Of a stretch of DNA of 64,000 nucleotides, positions 1 to 25,975 are shown piece by piece. The DNA comes from Candidatus Bathyarchaeia archaeon (GTDB lineage Archaea > Thermoproteota > Bathyarchaeia > Bathyarchaeales > Bathycorpusculaceae), in the NCBI GenBank assembly GCA_050010515.1, contig JBEKKX010000013.1, positions 1-64,000 on the forward strand, written 5' to 3'. Position numbers and translations under genes: made by a program. Numbering within the stretch: the first letter of the stretch is position 1; each line of letters starts with the position of its first letter. The notes under the pieces are model-generated. The model was not told the DNA's origin, searched no databases, and saw only the letters and a program-made list of their open reading frames with translations.

Positions 1-457
1 GACTTTTCGGTTTTGGAAAGTTGCGACTTTGTGTGGTTTTTGAGGTGATGGTTTGTTTGGTTTGGTTGCGCAGGTTATTTGTATATTTGTAATTATACAA
101 ATTTGAATTATACAGTTGGTCCCAGAGGATCATTTATACTGTTCACCTGACACATCCCTCTTTTTTTTGGGTCTTCATATGTAGAAAGGATAACGGTTTG
201 GCTCGCTGCAAAGCAAAGACGTTGACTAAGTAAGGAGGTCACATCTGTCGACTTGACTACACCACAAAACTCTTTTTCCGTTGGCAAGTCCTCGGCAAAA
301 TAGCAGGTTAACACTTACTTTTCAGAATTTCAACCATTGCTTTGGGACAAGTAAAAAATGCATGAATGAGTATACTGTAGCAGCAAATCTTGCTCTTACA
401 TAATTGTGTAAAGTCTCTCTTTTCTTTAGAAAGTATTACACCTAATAGATTGGCTCA

Positions 458-946
458 TTATATCCAGCGGCGTACTCTCTCGCAATACTGCTCATAGGCT
501 TCTCCGAAGTTTTTTCGCAATTGTTTCTCTTCAACTGGAATGACAATCCAATTGAGATAGTACACTACAAAAAGTAGTAGAATAAGAGACCAAACTAACG
601 TAAAAATCCCTGATATGCCAATAAAAATCAGGAACAGACCTATGTACATAGGGTTACGGCTGAATCGATAAGGTCCCCAAGTTATTAGCCTTGTCGAAGT
701 TTGGTTGGGGTCTGTGGTGGTGTGCTCTTTACGGAAGAGCCATTGTGCCCACGCTGCAAGAGTCACACCGACCACTAATAACAGAATACTGAGAACTTGA
801 GTGATTGTAAGTAAGACAACTGAACTGATGGTCAGGGGAACTATGAACTGGATTCCAACTCCGACTAGGTATGGAATCAAGAATACCCATGGAACAGGGA
901 TGCGCATTAGGGGATGAATTTTGCCGGAGTTATTGTTGTTGCCCAT
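458..946 (-). CDS. Isoprenylcysteine carboxyl methyltransferase/PEMT family membrane protein
   Basis: TM helices plus LITWGPYRFSRNPMY and EE..L...FG..Y..Y...VRRWI motifs. Confidence 0.9.
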   Translation of the reverse strand: MGNNNNSGKIHPLMRIPVPWVFLIPYLVGVGIQFIVPLTISSVVLLTITQVLSILLLVVGVTLAAWAQWLFRKEHTTTDPNQTSTRLITWGPYRFSRNPMYIGLFLIFIGISGIFTLVWSLILLLFVVYYLNWIVIPVEEKQLRKNFGEAYEQYCERVRRWI

Positions 947-968
947 GTGATTTACCTTAGTGAGTAAA

Positions 969-983
969 TTACTTAGTAAGTAA
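969..983. promoter_or_regulatory. Palindromic operator TTACTTA-G-TAAGTAA, likely MarR site
   Basis: Perfect 7-1-7 palindrome between divergent PEMT and MarR genes; imperfect second copy at ~952-967. Confidence 0.6.
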
Positions 984-1045
984 GATATGTTTATTATAAA
1001 CTTATTTGCTCAAATAGCAGAGAACCAGTTAAAAGAGGGAAAAAA

Positions 1046-1510
1046 ATGGCTATCGAGGAAGATTTACCGTCCGGAGTTCTCTTTGGACGAGAATTCAGTA
1101 CATCAGTAGTATTGTTTCAAGAGGCAGTAGCATCTAAACTTGGACTCAATGCCACAGACTACCGATGTTTAGAATTAATAATAAGGAAAGGCTCAATGAC
1201 AGCCAAGGTTCTTGCTGAAGAAGTAAATCTCTCAACAGGAGCCATAACCGGAATCATTGACCACCTTGAAAAAGCCGGATACGTCGAACGCCAAGCTAAC
1301 CCAAAAGACCGCAGAAGCATAATCATAAACCCACTCATAACCCACAAAGAAATACATGAAAAAATAGGAAACACAATGGAATCCTACAGAACTGCCATGA
1401 CCGAACTCTTCAAAAAATACGATGCAAAGCAAACCGCCGCAATAGTGGATTTCCTCCAAGAATTTGTTCAAATCCTCAAAGACCAAACATCAAAGCTTAA
1501 AGAAAAATAA
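1046..1510 (+). CDS. MarR family transcriptional regulator
   Basis: LGLNATDYRCL..LSTGAITGIIDHLEKAGYVER..NPKDRRS wHTH signature. Confidence 0.93.
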   Translation: MAIEEDLPSGVLFGREFSTSVVLFQEAVASKLGLNATDYRCLELIIRKGSMTAKVLAEEVNLSTGAITGIIDHLEKAGYVERQANPKDRRSIIINPLITHKEIHEKIGNTMESYRTAMTELFKKYDAKQTAAIVDFLQEFVQILKDQTSKLKEK

Positions 1511-1703
1511 CCCATCAGCCCAAAAGTAACAAAAAGTCAACGAAACAGCACAAGTTAACAAATTGGCGCACTGCTGCGCTATTTTATCGTTGGTGTATGC
1601 TATTTTTGCGTGGTTCCTTAAGGAGAAGAGCTTGGCGGAAGAAGGCGTGCTCTTGTTTGATTTAAAAGACCCTGAAAACCTCATAGAAGCTTAACCGCAG
1701 GCT

Positions 1704-1949
1704 TTATTCATCTTCGTCTTGGTGTCTGAGCTTGTCAAGCTCTGCCTTAACTTCTTCAACGGTGATATTGTCTGGACCTGTGCCTATCCAGTCCCAAAAC
1801 GAGTTTAGAGGCTTAAGTAGCAATCCCTGTTTCTTCTCGATAATAACAAAAGCTTTGCCGTCTTCTATCTTGTACTTTTTGCGTATCCAAAGGGGAATAG
1901 TAACGTGACCCTTCTTTACCACGATTACCCTGTTTTTTCTCATGCCCAC
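1704..1949 (-). CDS. AbrB/MazE/SpoVT-family antitoxin (second copy)
   Basis: KKGHVTIP..IRKKY.I..G swapped-hairpin motif; paralog of 2371..2601. Confidence 0.85.
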   Translation of the reverse strand: MGMRKNRVIVVKKGHVTIPLWIRKKYKIEDGKAFVIIEKKQGLLLKPLNSFWDWIGTGPDNITVEEVKAELDKLRHQDEDE

Positions 1950-1994
1950 TCACTGTATATTTCTAATTATACAATTTCAAATTATACTATTTTT

Positions 1995-2378
1995 TCAGAT
2001 CCATGCCGTTTGGATTTCTTTGATTTGCTTAAAGTGAGGGTCGTCTGTGATGCAGACTGCCTTAAGTACAAGTGCTGTGGCGGCAATCATGCTGTCACCC
2101 ATTGGCAATTGGTATTTATGTTTTAGTTCTGCAGAAACCTGCGCTATTTGTTCGTCAACTGGAACTACTTTAAATTCTTCCAGTATATTGGCAACCTGCG
2201 TTTTTGCGGTTTCTCGGCCTTCGCGTGATATGGCGAGATTGTAGACCTCATGAATAACCACCGCGGAAATGTATCGGTTTTTCCTCAGCTTTTCCGCTCT
2301 CATTTTGTTAAGCAGCTGTTCGTTTTTGGAATAGTAATAGTCTGCAAAAAAACGGGTATCAAAGACTGCTTTATTCAT
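1995..2378 (-). CDS. vapC: VapC PIN-domain toxin
   Basis: VFDT, ISAVVIHE, GDSMIAATA, TDDPHF acidic tetrad; start overlaps antitoxin stop. Confidence 0.92.
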   Translation of the reverse strand: MNKAVFDTRFFADYYYSKNEQLLNKMRAEKLRKNRYISAVVIHEVYNLAISREGRETAKTQVANILEEFKVVPVDEQIAQVSAELKHKYQLPMGDSMIAATALVLKAVCITDDPHFKQIKEIQTAWI

Positions 2379-2601
2379 CTTCTTGCCTGAGTTTGTCAAG
2401 TTCTTTTTTTACTTCTTCAGGTGTTCCGTATTGAGAATATGCCCCTGCCATATCCCAGAATGACTTTTTAGGCTTTAGTATGATGCTGTCTTTTGTTTCT
2501 ATCACTTCAAGGCGTGTACCTTCCTCTATCTTGAATTTTTTACGAATTCTAACTGGAATGGTGGTCTGACCTTTTTTCTTTACGACAATTTCATTTTCCA
2601 A
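2371..2601 (-). CDS. AbrB/MazE-family antitoxin (VapB)
   Basis: KKGQTTIPVRIRKKFKIEEG motif directly upstream of PIN gene. Confidence 0.88.
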   Translation of the reverse strand: MENEIVVKKKGQTTIPVRIRKKFKIEEGTRLEVIETKDSIILKPKKSFWDMAGAYSQYGTPEEVKKELDKLRQEDE

Positions 2602-2603
2602 CT

Positions 2604-2621
2604 AAGTCATCCGTATGACTT
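2604..2621. promoter_or_regulatory. Inverted repeat AAGTCAT-CCGT-ATGACTT, putative TA autorepression operator
   Basis: Perfect 7-4-7 IR immediately upstream of the antitoxin start. Confidence 0.55.
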
Positions 2622-2700
2622 TTTGTAAAGTAACACTTTTAAATATTGTGGCGCGATAGGTTACAAAGGCTTTTTAACACAGCCAAACACTTCTAAGCCA

Positions 2701-3244
2701 GTGACCCGTATGAGCCTGCTTGAAGCCAACGACTTTATCGTGAAAAAGAAAATCCTCTCAGCCCATGAGCACTATGACTTCGAAGACTTGCAGGGCAACA
2801 AGCTGGGCGAAGCTGATGGCAGCCTCGTTCAGGTTCCGCCCAAGTTTGACATCAAAGATAACCATGGCTTGGAGCTTATGCATCTGCAGGGGAAAGTGTT
2901 CTCGCTGCACAGTGAGTTTACTTTTAACGGCTCAGCCGATGAGGCGCTGGGAACAATAAAGAAGAAGATAGCCAAGCTGGTTGGGCAAGAATTCTGGGTG
3001 GAAAAAAACGGCGAAGAGTTCATGCGAATCTACGGAAACTTCAGAGCACGAGTACCAGATGGAGATCGCTGGGGTTCCAGTTGCTTCTGTTCACAAGAAA
3101 TGGGTATCTGTAAGAGACCAACTTGGAGTATCAATAACAGGAGACGTTGACCACCGAGCAGTTATTGGAGCGGTTATTGTGATAGAACACGTAGAAGTCA
3201 CAAAGAGACAATCTTCATCAGGCCCAATGAACATAAATCTTTAA
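2701..3244 (+). pseudogene. LURP-one/scramblase (Tubby C-terminal-like) protein, frameshifted near 3043
   Basis: IVKKKILS..G..KKK..IYGNF continues in another frame as EHEYQMEI..VASVHKKWVSVRD, typical of the family. Confidence 0.8.
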
Positions 3245-3292
3245 CTAGACCAAGCTAGCCGACAGAAACCAAAAAACCGAAAAGAACAAGCG
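3079..3292 (+). repeat. Direct repeat copy 1 (~214 bp; 3' end of LURP gene plus downstream)
   Basis: Near-identical to 5452..5666 (about 7 substitutions and 1 indel counted by eye). Confidence 0.95.
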
Positions 3293-3369
3293 GTTTGTTT
3301 TTTGCTTTTTTCTGATTTTTTTAAGTTGCGACTTTGTCTGGTTTTTGGCATGTGGTGGTGTGGTAGTAA

Positions 3370-4680
3370 TTACACGAAGCTTTTAACTTTGAATATTCCT
3401 TCCGAAGCTTGTCTAGCTTTTGAAACATATTTTTCTGGGCAGAAAACATAAAGCGTTCTGACTGGTATAAGGGAGGCAAATATTGGAGACTCTTCATCAA
3501 ATGAAAAGAATGAACCGTTCTTCCTTTTTACGTAAATAGGCTTTTCTTTGCTTCCAAACGTTTGTTCAAACCGTTCGTAGAGTTTTATTTTAATACTTTG
3601 AACATGAACTGTAACATATGCAGAATTGATTCCTAACTCATCTGCTATTTTATTCTCCGCATCATATGTCTGCTGTCTAGTCATTTCTCCAATCTTCTTT
3701 CTTATAATTGGGTTGTCAACGCCATCTTTAGTTAAAGGAACTACCAATGCTCTTTTCAACAGGTTTCGGTTTCTGATGTCATTGACTAAGTTCTTTGCTA
3801 AGCCGTTTGAATTTAAGAGGATTTTATGTTGAATTGAAAAATCGTCTAGTTTTAAATAGTTTTCAATGAAATCCTCAGGGCTGGCTTTAAAATCAAGTTC
3901 TTCCTTAGTAAGAACTCCCTCTTCTAATGCTAGATTTATCGATTTTATGAACATGTCATCAGCAATAAGTCGAGTATGATGTTCATAGACTTGTATATGC
4001 ATTGCATATCTAGCCAGGCGATAACTTTCTAAGGCATCCTTGCCTTTTTCTCTTATTGCTAAGTAGTCCCGTCCGGATTCCGATAACTTGCATATCATTC
4101 TAATTACACGCTCAATATCAAAAATGCCATAGGTAACTCCAGTATGATACGAATCTCTACGCAGATAATCAAGCTTGTCAACATCAAGACTGCTGGAGAT
4201 AATATCTGACCCTATCGATTCACCGTTTAATGCATCCAGAACTTCATTCTTTAAGCCTTTTACAGCATTTTTAACTTGCGGGTCATGCTCCACTATAAGT
4301 TTCGTTATATTCTCATGCGAAAAATCTTCACCGTTTATCCATCTCATTGGCTCTTCCCAGATATGGGAAAAAGGTCCTTGGCCTACATCATGCAGTAGAG
4401 CCGCGACCCTTATACCCTTCTTCTGTTTACTTGGCAATCTTAATTGCGTGCAAATTCTATCACTTAGGTAAAGAGTTCCTAGTGAATGTTCAAGCCTTGT
4501 ATGAACTGCGCTTGGATAAACGATATAGGTATGTGCCAGTTGTTTAATTCTTGATAGGCGTTGCATAGCCGTAGTATTTAGCACTGCATTTTCTGTTTGA
4601 TTTACATCAACAAAACCATAAAGCGGGCATCTTATTATCTTAGGTTCACTAATAGATGACACATTTAACCCTGATCTCAC
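3370..4680 (-). CDS. HD-superfamily phosphohydrolase, SAMHD1/YwfO-like (putative dNTPase)
   Basis: QRLSRIKQL, HTRLEHSLG, LLHDVGQGPFSH, DVDKLDYLRRD, VYEHH motifs. Confidence 0.9.
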   Translation of the reverse strand: MRSGLNVSSISEPKIIRCPLYGFVDVNQTENAVLNTTAMQRLSRIKQLAHTYIVYPSAVHTRLEHSLGTLYLSDRICTQLRLPSKQKKGIRVAALLHDVGQGPFSHIWEEPMRWINGEDFSHENITKLIVEHDPQVKNAVKGLKNEVLDALNGESIGSDIISSSLDVDKLDYLRRDSYHTGVTYGIFDIERVIRMICKLSESGRDYLAIREKGKDALESYRLARYAMHIQVYEHHTRLIADDMFIKSINLALEEGVLTKEELDFKASPEDFIENYLKLDDFSIQHKILLNSNGLAKNLVNDIRNRNLLKRALVVPLTKDGVDNPIIRKKIGEMTRQQTYDAENKIADELGINSAYVTVHVQSIKIKLYERFEQTFGSKEKPIYVKRKNGSFFSFDEESPIFASLIPVRTLYVFCPEKYVSKARQASEGIFKVKSFV

Positions 4681-5246
4681 TTTTCAGTATCCACGAGGAT
4701 CAAGTGAAGTGCTTGTAGCAGTTTGACGCCTGCTTCAACCTCACTCTGGTTAAGTTTCCAACCAAATAATTTTCCTGCATTCATCGCCTCTGTATAATTC
4801 ATCGGTTTTTCAGTTTTCTTCAGGATAAAATGGACTTTTGATGCCCAAGAAAGTGAACGATAGTTACAATTTACAATTCTACTGCATGCATTTACCACTT
4901 TGGAGATTATCCTATGTTCGGTTGGGAATTTTTTATTGATGACTTCAGCAAACTGGTGCCCGTCTGCCGTTAGGTAATAATTGTACATTGTTCTGTTTCT
5001 TACGGTTTGCCTTGCTTTTTCTACCACAAAGTCAAATTCAACCAGAGTTTGAAGGTTGGACGCAACAATGGGACTAAATGGACCGTATAAATCGGCTTCA
5101 TAGCCTGCATCCATGTTTAACTTAACGGATGATAAGTACCCGAGCTTTTGGATAGCTGTTCTTCCATCAACACCCTCAGGGCAACTGCTTAATATTGTAA
5201 TTATTAACTCTTCTATATCCACATTGCTTCCCAACGACTTTATCAC
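4677..5246 (-). CDS. YwgA/Panacea (SocA, DUF4065)-like winged-helix protein
   Basis: GRTAIQKLGYL...YGPFS...L..L...Y.Y.LT..G pattern; overlaps the HD gene. Confidence 0.7.
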   Translation of the reverse strand: MIKSLGSNVDIEELIITILSSCPEGVDGRTAIQKLGYLSSVKLNMDAGYEADLYGPFSPIVASNLQTLVEFDFVVEKARQTVRNRTMYNYYLTADGHQFAEVINKKFPTEHRIISKVVNACSRIVNCNYRSLSWASKVHFILKKTEKPMNYTEAMNAGKLFGWKLNQSEVEAGVKLLQALHLILVDTEK

Positions 5247-5451
5247 AGAATTGTGTTATTAAACTTATGCAAAGGTTTATGTCAACTTTACAAGCAATAA
5301 CTCCCAAATAGGTTAGAGACTTGCTATAATCAACCACTCAGCCTTTTGTTTTTCATGCTTCTATGCTTTTTTAATCACAGCAGGGGTATATACAAACCAA
5401 TTTTTGGCAAGGTTTTTTTAGCGGTTGCAAAGGCTTTTTAGATGAAAACAA

Positions 5452-5666
5452 AGTTGCTTCTGTTCACAAGAAATGGGTATCTGTAAGAGACCAACTTGGA
5501 GTCTCAATAACTGGAGATGTTGACCACCGAGTAGTTATTGGAGCGGTGATTGTGATAGAACACCTAGAAGTCACAAAGAGACAATCTTCATCAGGCCCAA
5601 TGAACATAAATCTTTAACTAGACCAAGCTAGCCGACAGAAACCAAAAAAACCGAAAAGAGCAAGCG
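5452..5666 (+). repeat. Direct repeat copy 2 (internally deleted duplicate of LURP gene)
   Basis: Matches 3079..3292; preceded by GGTTGCAAAGGCTTTTTA (5423-5440), matching LURP upstream GGTTACAAAGGCTTTTTA (2659-2676). Confidence 0.95.
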
Positions 5667-5669
5667 CGT

Positions 5670-6005
5670 CTATTTTTTGCGTTTGTCGCATTGGAGGACT
5701 TTGGGGCAGATTAGGCATTCTTCTTGTGTTAGCATGGTTTCTCCTGGTGCGTGTAGGAGTCCGCTGAAGTGTACGCATTTGGCTGGTGAATCGAAGACGG
5801 TGGGGTATTCGGTTGGTTTGACGCTGATTATTTTTTCGTTTTGGGTGGCTATTTCAAGTTTTGACATGCAGAAGGGGCAGGCGTAATGGGTTTGTCTGGG
5901 GATTACGGATGTGTCTGTAATGACGGTTGGTTTATCGAATAGTTTTTCGCATCCCTTGTAGGGGCATTTGAGTTTTTCTTCGTTATGTCCGTGGAAAAGC
6001 TGCAT
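5670..6005 (-). CDS. Small double zinc-finger protein
   Basis: CPYKGC..CPFC and C.H..G.L...ECLIC.K...C; RBS-like GGGAGG upstream. Confidence 0.8.
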   Translation of the reverse strand: MQLFHGHNEEKLKCPYKGCEKLFDKPTVITDTSVIPRQTHYACPFCMSKLEIATQNEKIISVKPTEYPTVFDSPAKCVHFSGLLHAPGETMLTQEECLICPKVLQCDKRKK

Positions 6006-6226
6006 GTCAATCGCCTCCCGCGTTTGTTATACATCGAGTGTAGCAATATTTAATAAACCTTTCCGCACGAAATCATGTGCTGCATAACCGCACAACACAA
6101 CTACAACAAAAAGCAAACAAAGGCAAATTTCGCTAAATGTTCATAGACTAAACGAATACCAGCACGTTCACGCACTTTTATAGCCTAAAACATGCTGCTT
6201 ACTCAGCTGGTAGAGATAACCATCTG

Positions 6227-6254
6227 AAAAGTAACCAAAGCCTCGAGCGGCTTT
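6227..6254 (-). repeat. Degenerate copy of tRNA-Thr 3' end (att-like site)
   Basis: AAAAGTAAC-caa-AGCCTCGAGCGG-CTTT vs AAAAGTAAC-tgg-AGCCTCGAGCGGgCTTT at 7284..7312. Confidence 0.7.
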
Positions 6255-6295
6255 CGTTTAATTGCCCTTCTATAAGAGGAAAAAAGGTATATACT

Positions 6296-6955
6296 TTAAC
6301 TCGGGGCTACTGCGTATTTTTCTTCAGAATAGTTGGCTGAAACTTTAACTGGTAAGATAGATTCGACGGTGACAAAAATCAGACCTCCAATAGCCGATAG
6401 GCTGATTTCCGAATTTGAAAGCTGATAGAAATCTGCAAGTCGTTCAGGAATCTTCAAAACGATGCTTTCACTGCTTTTCCTGATGGGCACAGTCTCTCTC
6501 GAAAATGCCTTCCCATTCCACTCCTCTGTTTCTTGGTAAGCAATCCCGATGGTTGACCTAGATAAGGCGTAGACAAACGCTTTTTCTCTCCAGAGGTCTA
6601 AGTTTGCCATCTCTCGCGGTATCTCAATTTGATTTGCCGGTCGTTTCTCAAAGTCTGTTGGATAAACTGTTTTGATTAGCATGCCCTTCTTCAAATTATG
6701 TTTTATTGCGGCTTTGCCTTCTGCTGTTAAGCGGTTAACGCTTCCATCTACTTTTCCGTTTGTACATGCAAGGTTCTGGGCAATTTCTGAAATTGTGATG
6801 CCTGGCTTTTTTATAATTTGTTCCAGGACTGCGGCGTCGGTTGATTGCCCCTTCTTATGCATTACGAGGGGTGCTCCTGAGAGTCTGTTCAATTTGGTCA
6901 CTTTCTCTTTGGGATAAATGCGCAAAGTTCCTAATAAGCGTTTAGAAGCTTCCAA
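6296..6955 (-). CDS. Winged-helix domain protein of unknown function
   Basis: VLEQIIKKPGITISEIAQNLACTNGKVDGSVNRL HTH; true start may be internal (MHKKG). Confidence 0.7.
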   Translation of the reverse strand: MEASKRLLGTLRIYPKEKVTKLNRLSGAPLVMHKKGQSTDAAVLEQIIKKPGITISEIAQNLACTNGKVDGSVNRLTAEGKAAIKHNLKKGMLIKTVYPTDFEKRPANQIEIPREMANLDLWREKAFVYALSRSTIGIAYQETEEWNGKAFSRETVPIRKSSESIVLKIPERLADFYQLSNSEISLSAIGGLIFVTVESILPVKVSANYSEEKYAVAPS

Positions 6956-6996
6956 ACGATTATCAAATTAACAATAAAAACCCATAGGCTCCAACT

Positions 6997-7245
6997 ATGA
7001 CCAAGGCAGTGCTAATTAGCCCCGCAGCCTACAGATGGCTACAAAGACACCGATTCGCCTCCGAAGAAGTCATAATCGGCATAATCCTAAACTGCCCAAC
7101 AAGTGAGCGCAAGTACACAGACGACAACAGATTCCAAATCACCTTTAAAAGAAGAAAAAACGGCAAATTCACAAACATCACCTTATGGGTACACGAGAGA
7201 CAAGACTCATTTTACGTCGGCAAAATACATTCAGAAAAAGCATAA
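6997..7245 (+). CDS. Small basic protein, possibly RelE/BrnT-like
   Basis: 82 aa; beta-helix start (ISPAAYRWL) and C-terminal beta strands ending KIHS. Confidence 0.5.
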   Translation: MTKAVLISPAAYRWLQRHRFASEEVIIGIILNCPTSERKYTDDNRFQITFKRRKNGKFTNITLWVHERQDSFYVGKIHSEKA

Positions 7246-7292
7246 TTCCATAACCAAGATGTTTTGCCAGAAATCCCAAATATAAAAGTAAC

Positions 7293-7369
7293 TGGAGCCT
7301 CGAGCGGGCTTTGATCCCGCGGCCTGCTGCTTACGAGGCAGCCGCTCTACCAGGCTGAGCCATCGGGGC
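7293..7369 (-). tRNA. tRNA-Thr(CGT) with encoded CCA
   Basis: GCCCCGATGGCTCAGCCTGGTAGAGCG-GCTGC-CTCGTAA-GCAGC-AGGCC-GCGGG-ATCAAAG-CCCGC-TCGAGGC-TCCA cloverleaf. Confidence 0.93.
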
Positions 7370-7682
7370 ATCCATTTGCTAATCAGTGAAACCCAAGTTT
7401 TTAAATGTTAGTAAGACCGCGCAGGTTAAGCATCAAAAATTTAGCCCTTCCCTTTCTGATTTGCCTCATTGCAGCGCAAGCATCCACTCCCCCTCCATAC
7501 TATTTACAACCAACCCTGCTAAGTAAAAAGCAACACACCCCCTCCAGCATACACTCATAAAGTTGTCTTTCACACATAAATCAAAGGCTAGAAGCCAAGC
7601 TAAACGCTTACATAAGCGTCAGTTTTAAAAGGCTTAAGCAACCTAATGTTTTAACCTGTAGTTTTAGCGGAGAGATGACTGT

Positions 7683-8708
7683 ATGGGTAACGATAAAACT
7701 GGCGGCTATCCGAACAAAACAAGCACAGACATAGGTGAACGAAAAATAATCGAAATCATCGCCCACCACCTTGAAGTTATGCCTAATTCACCCGTGCCTT
7801 TCGGAGACGACGTTGCCGCTGTCAACTTGGACGAAAAACAAGTCGCCGTGTTGAAAACAGATATGCTTGTAGGCAAAACCGACGTACCTCCAAACATGAG
7901 CCTGTGGCAAGCCGCGCGCAAAGCATTAGTTATGAACGTAAGCGATTTTGCTTCTAAAGGCGTCCAGCCCACGGCAGCTCTTGTGTCGCTCGGGTTACCC
8001 CGAGGTCTTATGCGAAAAGACATCGAAGAAATTGCCCGTGGACTCAATGCGGGAGCACGAGAATACGGCGTTTACGTTATTGGAGGCGACACAGGTGAAG
8101 CCTCAGACTTTATCATTTCAGTTTCGCTTTACGGCACAGCCGAAAAAGCAGCACTAATGCTGCGTAATGGAGCTAAGCCAGGCGATATCTTGGCTGTTAC
8201 AGGTTTCTTCGGCAAATCCGTTGCTGGCTTACGTTTGCTTTTGGATAACTATTCAGCTTCAGCGGACCTGCGTGACGTGTTGTCGGGTGCAGTTTGCATG
8301 CCTAAAGCTAGGCTAAAGGAAGGCTTAGCACTCAGCCGCTCAGGCGCAGTGTCGGCTTCCATTGATTCCAGTGACGGTTTAGCTTGGAGTCTGCATGAGA
8401 TTGGGAAAATGAGTGGCGTCGGCTTCCTAGTTAACAGTGTTCCTGTTGCTGATGAAGTTAGACGATTTGCCGAGTTTAATCATCTTGACCCTTTGGAGCT
8501 GGCGCTTTATGGCGGGGAAGAATACGAGCTTGTGGTAACAATTAAGTCTAAAGGGTGGATTGATGCCGAAGCCGCGGTTGAAGCGGTCGGCGGATGCATT
8601 TTGCCTATTGGAAAAGTCACAAAGGATACGCAGATGCTTTTGGACGTTGATGGAAAGAAACATGTTATTGAAGCTCGCGGCTGGGAGCACTTTAAGAGTA
8701 AGATTTAG
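7683..8708 (+). CDS. thiL: Thiamine-monophosphate kinase
   Basis: FGDD, KTDML, NVSDFASKG, IGGDT, IDSSDGL, GGEEYEL, GWEHF. Confidence 0.96.
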   Translation: MGNDKTGGYPNKTSTDIGERKIIEIIAHHLEVMPNSPVPFGDDVAAVNLDEKQVAVLKTDMLVGKTDVPPNMSLWQAARKALVMNVSDFASKGVQPTAALVSLGLPRGLMRKDIEEIARGLNAGAREYGVYVIGGDTGEASDFIISVSLYGTAEKAALMLRNGAKPGDILAVTGFFGKSVAGLRLLLDNYSASADLRDVLSGAVCMPKARLKEGLALSRSGAVSASIDSSDGLAWSLHEIGKMSGVGFLVNSVPVADEVRRFAEFNHLDPLELALYGGEEYELVVTIKSKGWIDAEAAVEAVGGCILPIGKVTKDTQMLLDVDGKKHVIEARGWEHFKSKI

Positions 8709-11169: not shown

Positions 11170-11598
11170 TTAGGATATTTTGAATAGGATGCGTTGTGGG
11201 ATGCCTTCGTCTTCCAGCACTAGATACTTGAGGCCTTCGGTGTCGCCAAGTTGGTCTAGCCATTTTAATGCGTCGCGCACTTTCTGTAAGACCAACAGCC
11301 GTTCTTGATGGTTCCGCACGACGGCTTCTATGGCTGTTAACTCGTGGAACGCATTAGCGTCTAAGATGATGTTTAGTGTACCCACTGTTATTTCGCCCAG
11401 GCTGTCTGCTGTGCTGGTTTTTTTCCCTGCAAGCTTCATTATAACTTCGCGAACTTTTTTTGATTTTTCCGCTAAAGTGCGGATTTCGTCTAAACGACGC
11501 AGATATTCGCCCAGTAAGCTTTTGGTTTCGGATAAATCCTTGTCTAGGTCGTCAGCTATTGCCTGTGCTGACGTATATTCTTTTAATTGGACAACCAT
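11170..11598 (-). CDS. Hypothetical coiled-coil protein
   Basis: GGAGGT RBS before MVVQLKEY; long heptad helices. Confidence 0.8.
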   Translation of the reverse strand: MVVQLKEYTSAQAIADDLDKDLSETKSLLGEYLRRLDEIRTLAEKSKKVREVIMKLAGKKTSTADSLGEITVGTLNIILDANAFHELTAIEAVVRNHQERLLVLQKVRDALKWLDQLGDTEGLKYLVLEDEGIPQRILFKIS

Positions 11599-11694
11599 GA
11601 TTTTGTACCTCCAAAAGAGGAAATAAGAGAAAGGGAAGATTGGTGGTTCGTTTTTCGCCTTACCCCCGAATTTCAAAGTCTAAAGATTATGGGC

Positions 11695-12132
11695 TTAAAG
11701 TGATGGACTGACGCTGTATGTTGCAGTGTAGGTGAGCGTATGCCCTTTAGCAGTTAGTAAGTTGAATGCGTATTGAGCACCACTAGCGAAAGTGCCGCTG
11801 GCGGCAGTAACAGTAAAGGATCCAGTAGCACCTTTAAGGATATTAGCACTAGTAACTGGTGTCAAGGTAGCAGCGTTTCCATCTATCGTTGCGCTTTGTA
11901 TCGTTACAGTGTTTGTTCCAGTATTTTGGACAGTAACGGTTACTGTAGTATTACTTGTAAAACTCACGTTTGTTATTGATGCTGATTCTGCGTTTCCCAT
12001 GAATCCAAGGGTTAATCCTCCCATCCATGCGGCTACGACGACACTGACTGCGACTGTGACGGCTATGAGTATGATTGTTGCGATTACGGGGCTTAGGGCT
12101 TTGGCGTTTTTCTTAAATTTTCTAAAGTTCAT
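11695..12132 (-). CDS. Archaeal type IV pilin (class III signal peptide)
   Basis: KKNAKA/LSPVIATIILIAVTVAV; Thr-rich beta-sandwich C-terminus. Confidence 0.92.
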   Translation of the reverse strand: MNFRKFKKNAKALSPVIATIILIAVTVAVSVVVAAWMGGLTLGFMGNAESASITNVSFTSNTTVTVTVQNTGTNTVTIQSATIDGNAATLTPVTSANILKGATGSFTVTAASGTFASGAQYAFNLLTAKGHTLTYTATYSVSPSL

Positions 12133-25378: not shown

Positions 25379-25975
25379 TTAGGTTTTTTCTTTGAAGCAC
25401 AACGTTAGCATACCGTCAATACAGAACGGCGACAGTTCGCCTTCGCTGTCTTGTTTTATGCATAGTTGTCTCATATCACATTTAGGGCAGATGCTGCTGC
25501 TTAGCTGGGCGGCGCTGGTTTCTAAGAGGTTGTTTTCTTTTAGGGTTTCGTAGGCAAATTTTAAGTATTTTCCTTCGGCTATGCGTGGTACTTCGTATTT
25601 GGCTGCTTCTACACCTGCTTGAATGGCAAAGTACTCGTATAGTCTTCTTGAGCCTTTTTGGGAGTTGCAGCTTTTGCATATCCAAACAAGATTCTTCTCA
25701 ACGTTAGGACCATTGAACTTTTGCGGCAGCAAATGCTCAAGCGTCAGGTTTGTAGTTGCCCCGCAGAAAATGCACTCGTTTGAATACTCCCTCTCTTTGA
25801 TGTATTCCCTAATTTCGTTCCATGAAATGCTGCCCTGCTTGAGCTGCTTGAACTTGTTCATCACAAAACCATAATCTCTCTTTCCCATGCCTGCCGAATC
25901 AGCGATAATTTTCGCGTACTGCCAATAAATGAGGTCTTTGACGCTTTTTACCACCGCTGGAGGCATTTGTTGCAC
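25379..25975 (-). CDS. HNH endonuclease with Cys-rich C-terminus
   Basis: CIFCG..LTLEHLLP..G.N..KNLV..CKSCNSQKG. Confidence 0.9.
   Translation of the reverse strand: MQQMPPAVVKSVKDLIYWQYAKIIADSAGMGKRDYGFVMNKFKQLKQGSISWNEIREYIKEREYSNECIFCGATTNLTLEHLLPQKFNGPNVEKNLVWICKSCNSQKGSRRLYEYFAIQAGVEAAKYEVPRIAEGKYLKFAYETLKENNLLETSAAQLSSSICPKCDMRQLCIKQDSEGELSPFCIDGMLTLCFKEKT

Follow-up and report, generated by a model that had tools for sequence, protein, structure and literature searches.

The stretch of DNA analysed here, which we call the window, comprises the 64,000 nucleotides at positions 1 to 64,000 of contig JBEKKX010000013.1 from a Candidatus Bathyarchaeia archaeon. Near its left end lie two minus-strand genes which a preliminary description of the sequence had read as an overlapping operon and as a candidate defence or toxin-antitoxin module. 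The upstream gene (4677..5246; 189 aa, or ~181-189 aa depending on which of the alternative starts 5246, 5234 and 5222 is used) encodes a YwgA-family protein, hereafter the partner, that resembles a stand-alone DarG C-terminal domain (DarG-CTD) and is a putative inhibitor or sensor. The downstream gene (3370..4680; 436 aa) encodes an HD phosphohydrolase of the EF1143/SAMHD1/YwfO type, a putative deoxynucleoside triphosphate (dNTP) triphosphohydrolase effector. The operon structure was borne out, the two open reading frames (ORFs) overlapping by 4 nt (GTGA). The pair has a GC content of 0.377 versus 0.427 across positions 7683-64000 of the window, and it is bracketed by two copies of a direct repeat with no other genes between them.

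The HD protein matched the Pfam families PF01966 and PF19276 above their cut-offs, and its closest structures in the PDB were 2HEK, 2Q14, EF1143 (2O6I) and fungal SAMHD1 (9MR6), in line with the SAMHD1-like character attributed to it beforehand. Metal ligands (H65/H97/D98/D168), the second-metal residue H122, the catalytic pair H106/E109, the residues R62, K169 and R224, and the sugar-selecting residues Q47/L48/D176/Y232 were all present and conserved across the clade. The deoxyribose-selecting and phosphate-binding positions (Q47, L48, D176, Y232, R62, K169 and R224) were kept in 43-47 of the 47 rows in which the HD gene has a partner. Human SAMHD1 numbering was assigned to the HD residues by motif position, a correspondence that we presume to hold. 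The roles given to SAMHD1-type residues are those in PMC7311409 (here and below, papers are cited for the sections available to us), and comparison with the fungal enzyme of PMC12042053 equated R62 with fungal R61. As far as sequence can tell, the HD and HD_assoc_2 domains, with their metal ligands and catalytic pair, place the protein in the SAMHD1/EF1143 type. The guanine-effector triad, D34/Q39/R42 in fungal SAMHD1 (PMC12042053), reads N35/Q40/S43 in the window protein. The effector arginine was found in 0/38 of its close homologues, and the Q..R pair persists in 18/44 partnered loci that could be scored versus 32/32 partner-less ones. Further changes specific to the clade were H50, together with E233 and H228 at positions where partner-less HD proteins carry aromatics. 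Assignment to the dGTPase subfamily found no support, as the PADLOC dGTPase model matched residues 33-110 only (E 2e-7) and the NCBIfam dGTPases scored far below cut-off. The conserved residues make it likely that the HD protein is a dNTP-hydrolysing enzyme.

The partner had been described as Panacea/YwgA-like, and the two parts of that name fared differently. The Pfam Panacea family PF13274 (SocA_Panacea) did not match the window partner and matched 3/150 of its homologues at E<=0.01 (best 0.0011); one neighbouring cluster of the partner in the Atlas, with 13% PF13274 at a score of 0.88, is a lead only. Glycine and proline are invariant in 150/150 homologues, within a motif that reads YGP[YF]S; the Panacea signature motif is given as GPV (PMC8832971). 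The relation to YwgA held. The family has 1651 representatives at E<=0.001, 7/13 close homologues are named YwgA by JGI, and comparison with the Priestia protein at the YwgA position (hhalign probability 98.9 over 152 columns; hmmsearch E 3e-19) identifies the partner as a true, full-length YwgA homologue.

A phmmer search of the PDB with the partner returned nothing below E 0.24. A single-sequence fold (pLDDT 43) was discarded for an alignment-based AF2 model (pLDDT 97.7), whose match to the 7YK3 DarG chain was full length (Foldseek E 3e-6, TM 0.65; E 4.8e-6 in a separate search; Z 16.2, root mean square deviation 4.1, 165 residues aligned). The next structural matches were winged-helix regulators of the PadR/MarR type (Z 8.4-10.3), covering partner residues ~1-108. 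According to the model, the partner carries the full fold of the toxin-binding CTD of DarG. This domain alone binds, sequesters and neutralises DarT (PMC7003065) and has been described as a single-stranded DNA mimic (PMC10760071); its homology to DUF4065 was noted earlier (PMC13621843). The partner is no member of the DarG family itself, since it scored 19.7 versus 250 bits with NF048014, over profile positions 189-314 only, and Pfam found no macrodomain in it. Predictions of the complex of the HD protein and the partner (runs 0.52, 0.01 and 0.00; median 0.01, mark 0.32) were counted neither way. The partner fold also matched part of 624-aa specificity (S) subunits of type I restriction systems in the ESM Atlas (TM 0.78 by query), which hints at fusion of a partner-type domain into restriction systems.

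The distribution of the pair was analysed in a scan of GTDB with the HD alignment. It returned 168 relatives, the best 80 of which were kept as 79 loci (labelled L). The partner adjoins the HD gene in 47/79 loci: every one of the 45 that rank best, and two further loci (L050 and L053) whose HD gene is broken. It is missing from all of the other 32; the partnered and partner-less groups compared throughout are defined by the outcome of this adjacency count itself. The order is partner then HD in 46/47 loci. These 47 loci are spread over 41 genomes, which belong to Bathyarchaeia, Nitrososphaeria, Methanomicrobiales, Methanosarcinales and Thermoplasmata and include a few bacterial bins; 5 genomes have 2-3 copies of the pair. 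Near-identical copies were found in unrelated flanks with ~2.0-2.5 kb in common (L022/L023 98.8%, L036/L037 91%, L031/L035 84%). Because only the pair and short flanks are common to them, the moving unit would measure ~2 kb. HD GC was below flank GC in 25/30 long partnered loci versus 4/17 controls, and neighbours common to several loci amounted to 49/247 around partnered genes versus 97/142 around controls. In a quick tree of 71 rows, from which HD ORFs under 330 aa were left out, 40 partnered rows formed one branch (support 86) and L041 could not be placed. The HD gene is broken in 5/47 loci and the partner in 0/46 non-edge loci. The closest HD cluster apart from that of the window shares 75% identity and the closest partner 73%, while intact relatives of the LURP protein encoded beside the pair reach 87-94%; the nearest named relatives of both LURP and HD proteins belong to Bathyarchaeia. 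This difference in identity fits an accessory status of the pair in this lineage. These comparisons indicate that the pair is almost certainly a mobile coupled unit.

No member of the clade was found in plasmid or phage collections, where the best HD matches had 22-38% identity. Their sole match to the partner was a haloarchaeal DUF4065 gene with no adjoining HD gene, and 1/6 HD loci from the plasmid collection with 2.5-kb flanks (that of Priestia) carried a YwgA homologue. An intact pair is present in a cultured methanogen, Methanoculleus palmolei DSM 4273 (L035). In an Ignavibacteria bin (L024, 5841-16905), a locus containing Hma and the pair is ~90% identical over 11 kb to that of Methanoperedens (L034), with a near-identical HD gene; L024 is probably a misbinned contig, or else possibly a case of cross-domain transfer.

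The direct repeats around the pair derive from a LURP-one-related (YxjI-like) gene. The left copy of this gene (2710..3244, plus strand; PF04525 24.9 bits, cut-off 24.5) is full length and frameshifted near 3048. It is preceded on the same strand by a promoter-like 18-mer (2659..2676), which by eye we take to be archaeal BRE/TATA-like and which, at <=3 mismatches, occurs in the window at 2659 and 5423 only (2 matches, 0.14 expected). The left direct repeat (3079..3312, plus) comprises the 3′ 54 codons of LURP and the downstream region, and the right one (5452..5687, plus) comprises the corresponding LURP 3′ fragment and downstream region. The repeat measures 205 nt at 96% identity without gaps (3079-3283 and 5452-5656) or 236 nt at 94.5% with gaps, at a spacing of 2,373 bp, so that the ~214 bp first reported was about right. 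Upstream of the right repeat lies what appears to be a remnant of the promoter region of a second LURP allele (5417..5440, plus), which matches 2659-2676 at 17/18 positions and is joined to the repeat via 11 nt. Both LURP copies are thus decayed, as had been proposed, the right one consisting of the promoter remnant, 11 nt and the 3′ 54 codons.

The idea that the copies stem from two diverged alleles had been founded on the nature of their coding differences. There are 6 codon differences, 4 synonymous and 2 non-synonymous; against a random-substitution share of 0.247, at least 4/6 synonymous has P = 0.036, which lends modest support only. The comparison with relatives (labelled P) is the better evidence for two alleles. 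Intact LURP relatives of 178 aa exist, and the variable residues of the left repeat (A, V) are those of intact P0292, while those of the right repeat (V, L) are those of intact P0286 and P0287. The DNA of 5417..5440 reads FSGCKGFL, identical to the upstream read-through of the LURP gene of P0288. Sequence comparison therefore supports the resemblance of the two copies to different natural alleles, and the right copy would combine the promoter remnant and the 3′ end of the second one. Two further features were noted at these genes. The LURP gene of P0288 is frameshifted at about the same codon as that of the window, into a different frame, which suggests a slippage hot spot, and that of P0289 is likewise frameshifted, further along. 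None of 11 queries from genes neighbouring the pair in the window, LURP included, matched any ORF in the 80 fetched loci, which places LURP outside the module. An intergenic element of 55 bp (3308..3362), near-palindromic at its core, has a second copy at 4-55 (80% over 55 nt), and its core occurs within the window at 18 and 3323 only. An A-rich motif related to this element follows both LURP copies. As a module-specific recombination site or attC the element was rejected, its core being found in 0/80 loci with no match in Rfam.

Flanking repeats of this kind recur at other loci. When repeats of >=80 nt and >=70% identity within 1.5 kb were sought at loci with >=800 nt on each side (thresholds set after a first look), they were found at 5/35 partnered loci versus 0/19 control loci, 0/106 same-contig segments and 0/28 window segments (0/153). 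At L011 (371 bp, 93.5%), L021 (302 bp, 94.7%; chromosome-level record OZ241884.1) and L042 (286 bp, 74.5%) they duplicate coding sequence, and at L036 and L037 they are intergenic. A repeat of 1,043 bp was seen at L012 with 3-kb flanks, its permease differences being 48 synonymous to 6 non-synonymous. The window, L011/L012 and L021 have a common geometry, in which the longer host-gene copy converges on the HD gene and the 5′-truncated duplicate lies upstream of the partner; the geometry of L042 differs from these. At L002 the pair is flanked by a tRNA on one side and by a copy of that tRNA's 3′ end on the other, and at L006 it follows tRNA-Glu and, by eye, an apparent integrase fragment. Right after its HD gene, L012 also carries another piece of the ABC permease 3′ end, its third, a remnant of 58 bp (3937-3994), which suggests serial accretion of cassettes at one gene end.

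A Pfam scan of the 12 ORFs of 461-7242 found no integrase, as had been stated from the start. The arrangement resembles the insertion of restriction-modification genes described by Furuta et al. 2010 (PMC2853133), in which entry flanked by repeats occurs without an integrase and which is recognised by a duplication >30 bp, an insert <20 kb and no other mobile element. The 236-bp repeat and the two genes within 2,373 bp fall inside these limits. Given this match, we regard the repeat architecture as something that marks mobile conflict cassettes in general, not as a dedicated mobility system. The window differs from those inserts in two respects: its duplicates diverge by 5-7% and have the look of two alleles, whereas four examples in PMC2853133 are identical at 44-47 of 46-47 bp, and its cargo lacks a nuclease. 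Since the repeat copies are diverged alleles, recombination between strains is pointed to; homology-facilitated illegitimate recombination (PMC5361080) is one candidate route.

To describe the surroundings of the pair, neighbours were labelled by hand from Pfam matches; 300 representatives were scanned for the 491 families of neighbours within 4.5 kb, along with 89 control representatives. Defence-type genes were present within 4.5 kb at 23/47 partnered versus 2/32 partner-less loci, and insertion sequences at 10 versus 1. PADLOC, run on 60 hand-picked neighbours, recognised Hma, HEC-01, HEC-02, DrmA, restriction-modification and PDC genes. The pair itself is not covered by any PADLOC 2.0 model. 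At L016, L019, L024 and L034 the pair is embedded between hmaC and hmaB and shares their orientation; in this setting 7/9 embedded candidates tested were antiviral (bioRxiv 2024.01.29.577857). These neighbourhoods suggest that a role of the pair in conflict is fairly probable. At L008, a cytidine/dCMP deaminase-family gene lies directly 3′ of the HD gene in the same orientation (11318-11725), possibly a second nucleotide-depleting arm.

The reading that we prefer, to which we give not quite an even chance, is that the pair is a defence or toxin-antitoxin-like module, mobile but free of any recombinase, whose dNTPase is kept in check by a DarG-CTD-like protein. What had been proposed as a defence or toxin-antitoxin module stands to the extent that the pair is coupled, accessory and mobile, has defence-type neighbourhoods and contains the fold of an antitoxin domain; its membership of Panacea does not. 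According to this model, the YwgA-like and HD genes form a self-contained accessory module that, by comparison of loci, moves without a recombinase of its own and, judged by context, may serve defence or addiction. Like EF1143 and SAMHD1, the HD protein would split dNTPs into nucleoside and triphosphate, as its conserved residues suggest. The fold and the strict coupling suggest that the upstream partner restrains it in the manner of the DarG CTD or Panacea antitoxins, and we lean slightly towards the partner being a direct inhibitor. Infection or stress might lift this block, dNTP pools would drop, and viral replication and growth would stall. More speculatively, the loss of the guanine-effector arginine suggests that control shifted from GTP allostery to the partner. 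The pair would have arrived by recombination between two LURP alleles, either through homology-anchored insertion or through integration of a small LURP-carrying circle, leaving a heteroallelic duplication in which both copies are now broken, and addiction or selection may have retained it between the repeats. A wider version, which we consider doubtful, sees in the pair a widespread archaeal antiviral system: a tetrameric SAMHD1/EF1143-type dNTPase guarded by a stand-alone DarG-CTD-like sensor-antitoxin that replaces GTP allostery. In this version the pair would spread as a unit of ~2 kb with nothing else attached, inserting through homology in such a way that a foreign allele duplicates the host gene's 3′ end (a geometry common to three independent sites: the window, L011/L012 and L021), and addiction would keep it between recombinogenic repeats.

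Several observations weigh against the preferred model. The HD protein has Q101 at the position equivalent to His210, with Q in 25/38 close homologues and 3/45 rows of the GTDB clade. Partners are not uniformly acidic (isoelectric point <6 in 25/47, >8 in 11/47), so that single-stranded DNA mimicry in the style of DarG is not assured. The HD tree largely tracks host groups and so lends no support to long-range transfer. The 5:0 asymmetry of gene decay is a trend only, not significant given gene lengths (~0.17 by hand). A pair of HD and YwgA genes in Priestia, in the opposite order, occupies a core Bacillaceae locus between pta, a lipoate-ligase-family gene, rsfA and a tautomerase, and ywgA is not known to be essential in Bacillus subtilis. 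The four Hma-embedded cases probably represent one event, 24/47 partnered loci have no recognised defence neighbour, and the close Bathyarchaeia relatives L001 and L006 lie amid housekeeping genes. The control loci are bacterial or Asgard, phylogenetically unmatched, redundant and mostly from Gemmatimonadota, so that p-values overstate independence. Finally, fungal SAMHD1 is active without an effector site (PMC12042053), and loss of the effector arginine need not mean control by the partner.

The same defence context would suit a partner that acts as sensor and activator, leaving the HD protein silent alone and both genes required. The NetFlax paper (PMC10440598) proposes that Panacea often acts as a sensor, the loss of the effector arginine (Q..R in 18/44 versus 32/32) could call for a different activator, and the N-terminal half of the modelled partner is a winged helix that could bind nucleic acid. 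Nevertheless, among solved structures the full-length fold nearest to the partner, that of DarG, belongs to an inhibitory domain, and the loss of HD genes only (5 versus 0) suits an inhibitor slightly better, if not significantly; we hold an activating partner to be unlikely. A different substrate within a conflict module, such as signalling or modified nucleotides or nucleic acid ends instead of bulk dNTPs, could account for the changes near the active site (Q101, E233, H228 and H50), but it sits poorly with the deoxyribose-selecting and phosphate-binding positions kept in nearly all partnered rows, and we judge it clearly improbable.

Alternatively, the pair could be a housekeeping or sanitising enzyme of the nucleotide pool with a winged-helix transcriptional regulator, like ywfO-ywgA, which drifts through accessory regions and has no role in conflict. 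Vertical conservation of such a housekeeping pair, with no toxicity or defence, had been named in advance as one finding that would refute the defence reading. A homologous core pair exists in Bacillaceae, and L001 and L006 lie amid housekeeping genes; the archaeal clade occupies variable sites. The regulator-like matches of partner residues 1-108, the rough agreement of the HD tree with host groups, and the proposal, which is only that, of YwfO as a sanitising pyrophosphohydrolase (PMC4993169) favour this explanation. It is opposed by the variable sites, the several copies per genome, the low GC, the embedding in Hma and the frequent pseudogenisation, and by the match to the full-length DarG CTD, which lies well above the regulator matches. 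In addition, L006 has a second, partner-less HD gene amid core genes, so that the housekeeping slot is already filled there. On balance a housekeeping pair appears rather improbable. As for the flanking repeat, strain mixing during assembly would have been conceivable in a source that is probably a metagenome assembly and in copies that match different natural alleles. However, the copies differ at ~13 positions and each has unique junctions, path switching cannot produce an internal deletion with 11 nt of filler, L011, L012 and the chromosome-level L021 show this geometry as well, and the HD protein and the 146-aa frameshifted LURP product are recorded on 7 and 13 contigs, respectively (longest 171,626 for both). 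An assembly artefact, raised at the outset as an objection, is therefore very improbable.

We take YdhJ to be COG1078, the family of the window HD protein. Dataset S1 of Kurata et al. 2022 (PMC8832971) contains a predicted PanAT cluster, T34/pT33, that joins an HD 'YdhJ' toxin to Panacea in 5 accepted and 2 rejected rows, all from Firmicutes (the five accepted ones thermophilic) and all marked 'notest'; the term 'HD domain' is absent from the main text, and the NetFlax supplements gave no match for YdhJ, HD domain, COG1078, dNTP or YwgA. Compared by the description in the supplement alone and not by sequence, T34 resembles the window pair in that an HD phosphohydrolase adjoins a Panacea-superfamily gene at near-zero spacing as a predicted toxin-antitoxin. 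T34 is toxin-first and bacterial with a DUF4065 partner, unlike the clade of the window, which is partner-first in 46/47 loci, mostly archaeal, and below PF13274 detection. The archaeal partner-first clade appears to be new, and the pairing of HD with Panacea was already predicted. We found no account of this clade and no test of such a pair in the openly accessible literature, and an earlier supplementary listing (in the Kurata file or by Payne et al.) is possible.

Bacillus ywfO-ywgA has a homologous HD enzyme and a homologous full-length partner in adjoining genes; it differs from the window clade by its opposite order and conserved core-gene setting. The names ywfO and ywgA of the Priestia genes rest on synteny that we presume. 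Among publications naming either gene, none is on the pair by title. With DarTG the partner shares the entire fold of the DarT-sequestering domain (7YK3), but it has no macrodomain, DarT is missing, and the neighbour is an HD enzyme. The architecture of HD and HD_assoc_2, the metal ligands, the His/acid dyad and the deoxyribose filter are those of SAMHD1 and EF1143, from which the window protein differs by N35/Q40/S43 in place of the effector D/Q/R, by Gln at the His210-like position and by an obligatory partner gene. Antiphage dGTPase and Clover (CloA-CloB; PMC12265719) would share its nucleotide-depletion logic, and Clover likewise has two genes, the second of which restrains the hydrolase. 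The window HD protein belongs to another subfamily, with partial, sub-threshold matches only, and its partner is not a nucleotidyltransferase, unlike the Clover regulator that makes p3diT (PMC12265719).

The nucleotide-depletion defences of prokaryotes that we found in print use the dGTPase subfamily. If the pair defends its host, the EF1143-containing subfamily, a close one to SAMHD1, would act against viruses in archaea under a new form of control exerted by a protein. The DarG C-terminal/Panacea fold would then gain a new class of client. Should the wider antiviral version hold, it would provide a prokaryotic counterpart to SAMHD1-type immunity and a function for ywfO-ywgA. The recurring heteroallelic duplications would be natural examples of small defence modules entering archaeal chromosomes without integrases. 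The defence idea could be tested at low cost, since the cultured methanogen carries an intact copy.

The left end of the window forms a variable zone with PEMT, MarR and solo AbrB genes, a vapBC-type pair, the HD/partner cassette and a tRNA-Thr (7293-7369), the sole Rfam match in 1-8000. A sigma-70 promoter scan was uninformative (11 found versus 7.6 expected). The 3′ end of the tRNA-Thr recurs as a copy of 24 nt (88%; 6227-6250 and 7284-7307). The two sites enclose a segment of ~1 kb that contains a winged-helix gene (6296-6955) and an ORF of 82 aa (6997-7245), by appearance a decayed tRNA-integrated element. An 88% repeat (80-113 and 1954-1987) resembles an AbrB operator or promoter; one copy precedes the solo AbrB gene (1704-1949) and the other has no adjoining AbrB ORF. 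A PIN toxin is flanked by two AbrB genes with 66% DNA identity, and an ORF that by eye is HNH-like (25379-25975) stands alone amid housekeeping genes.

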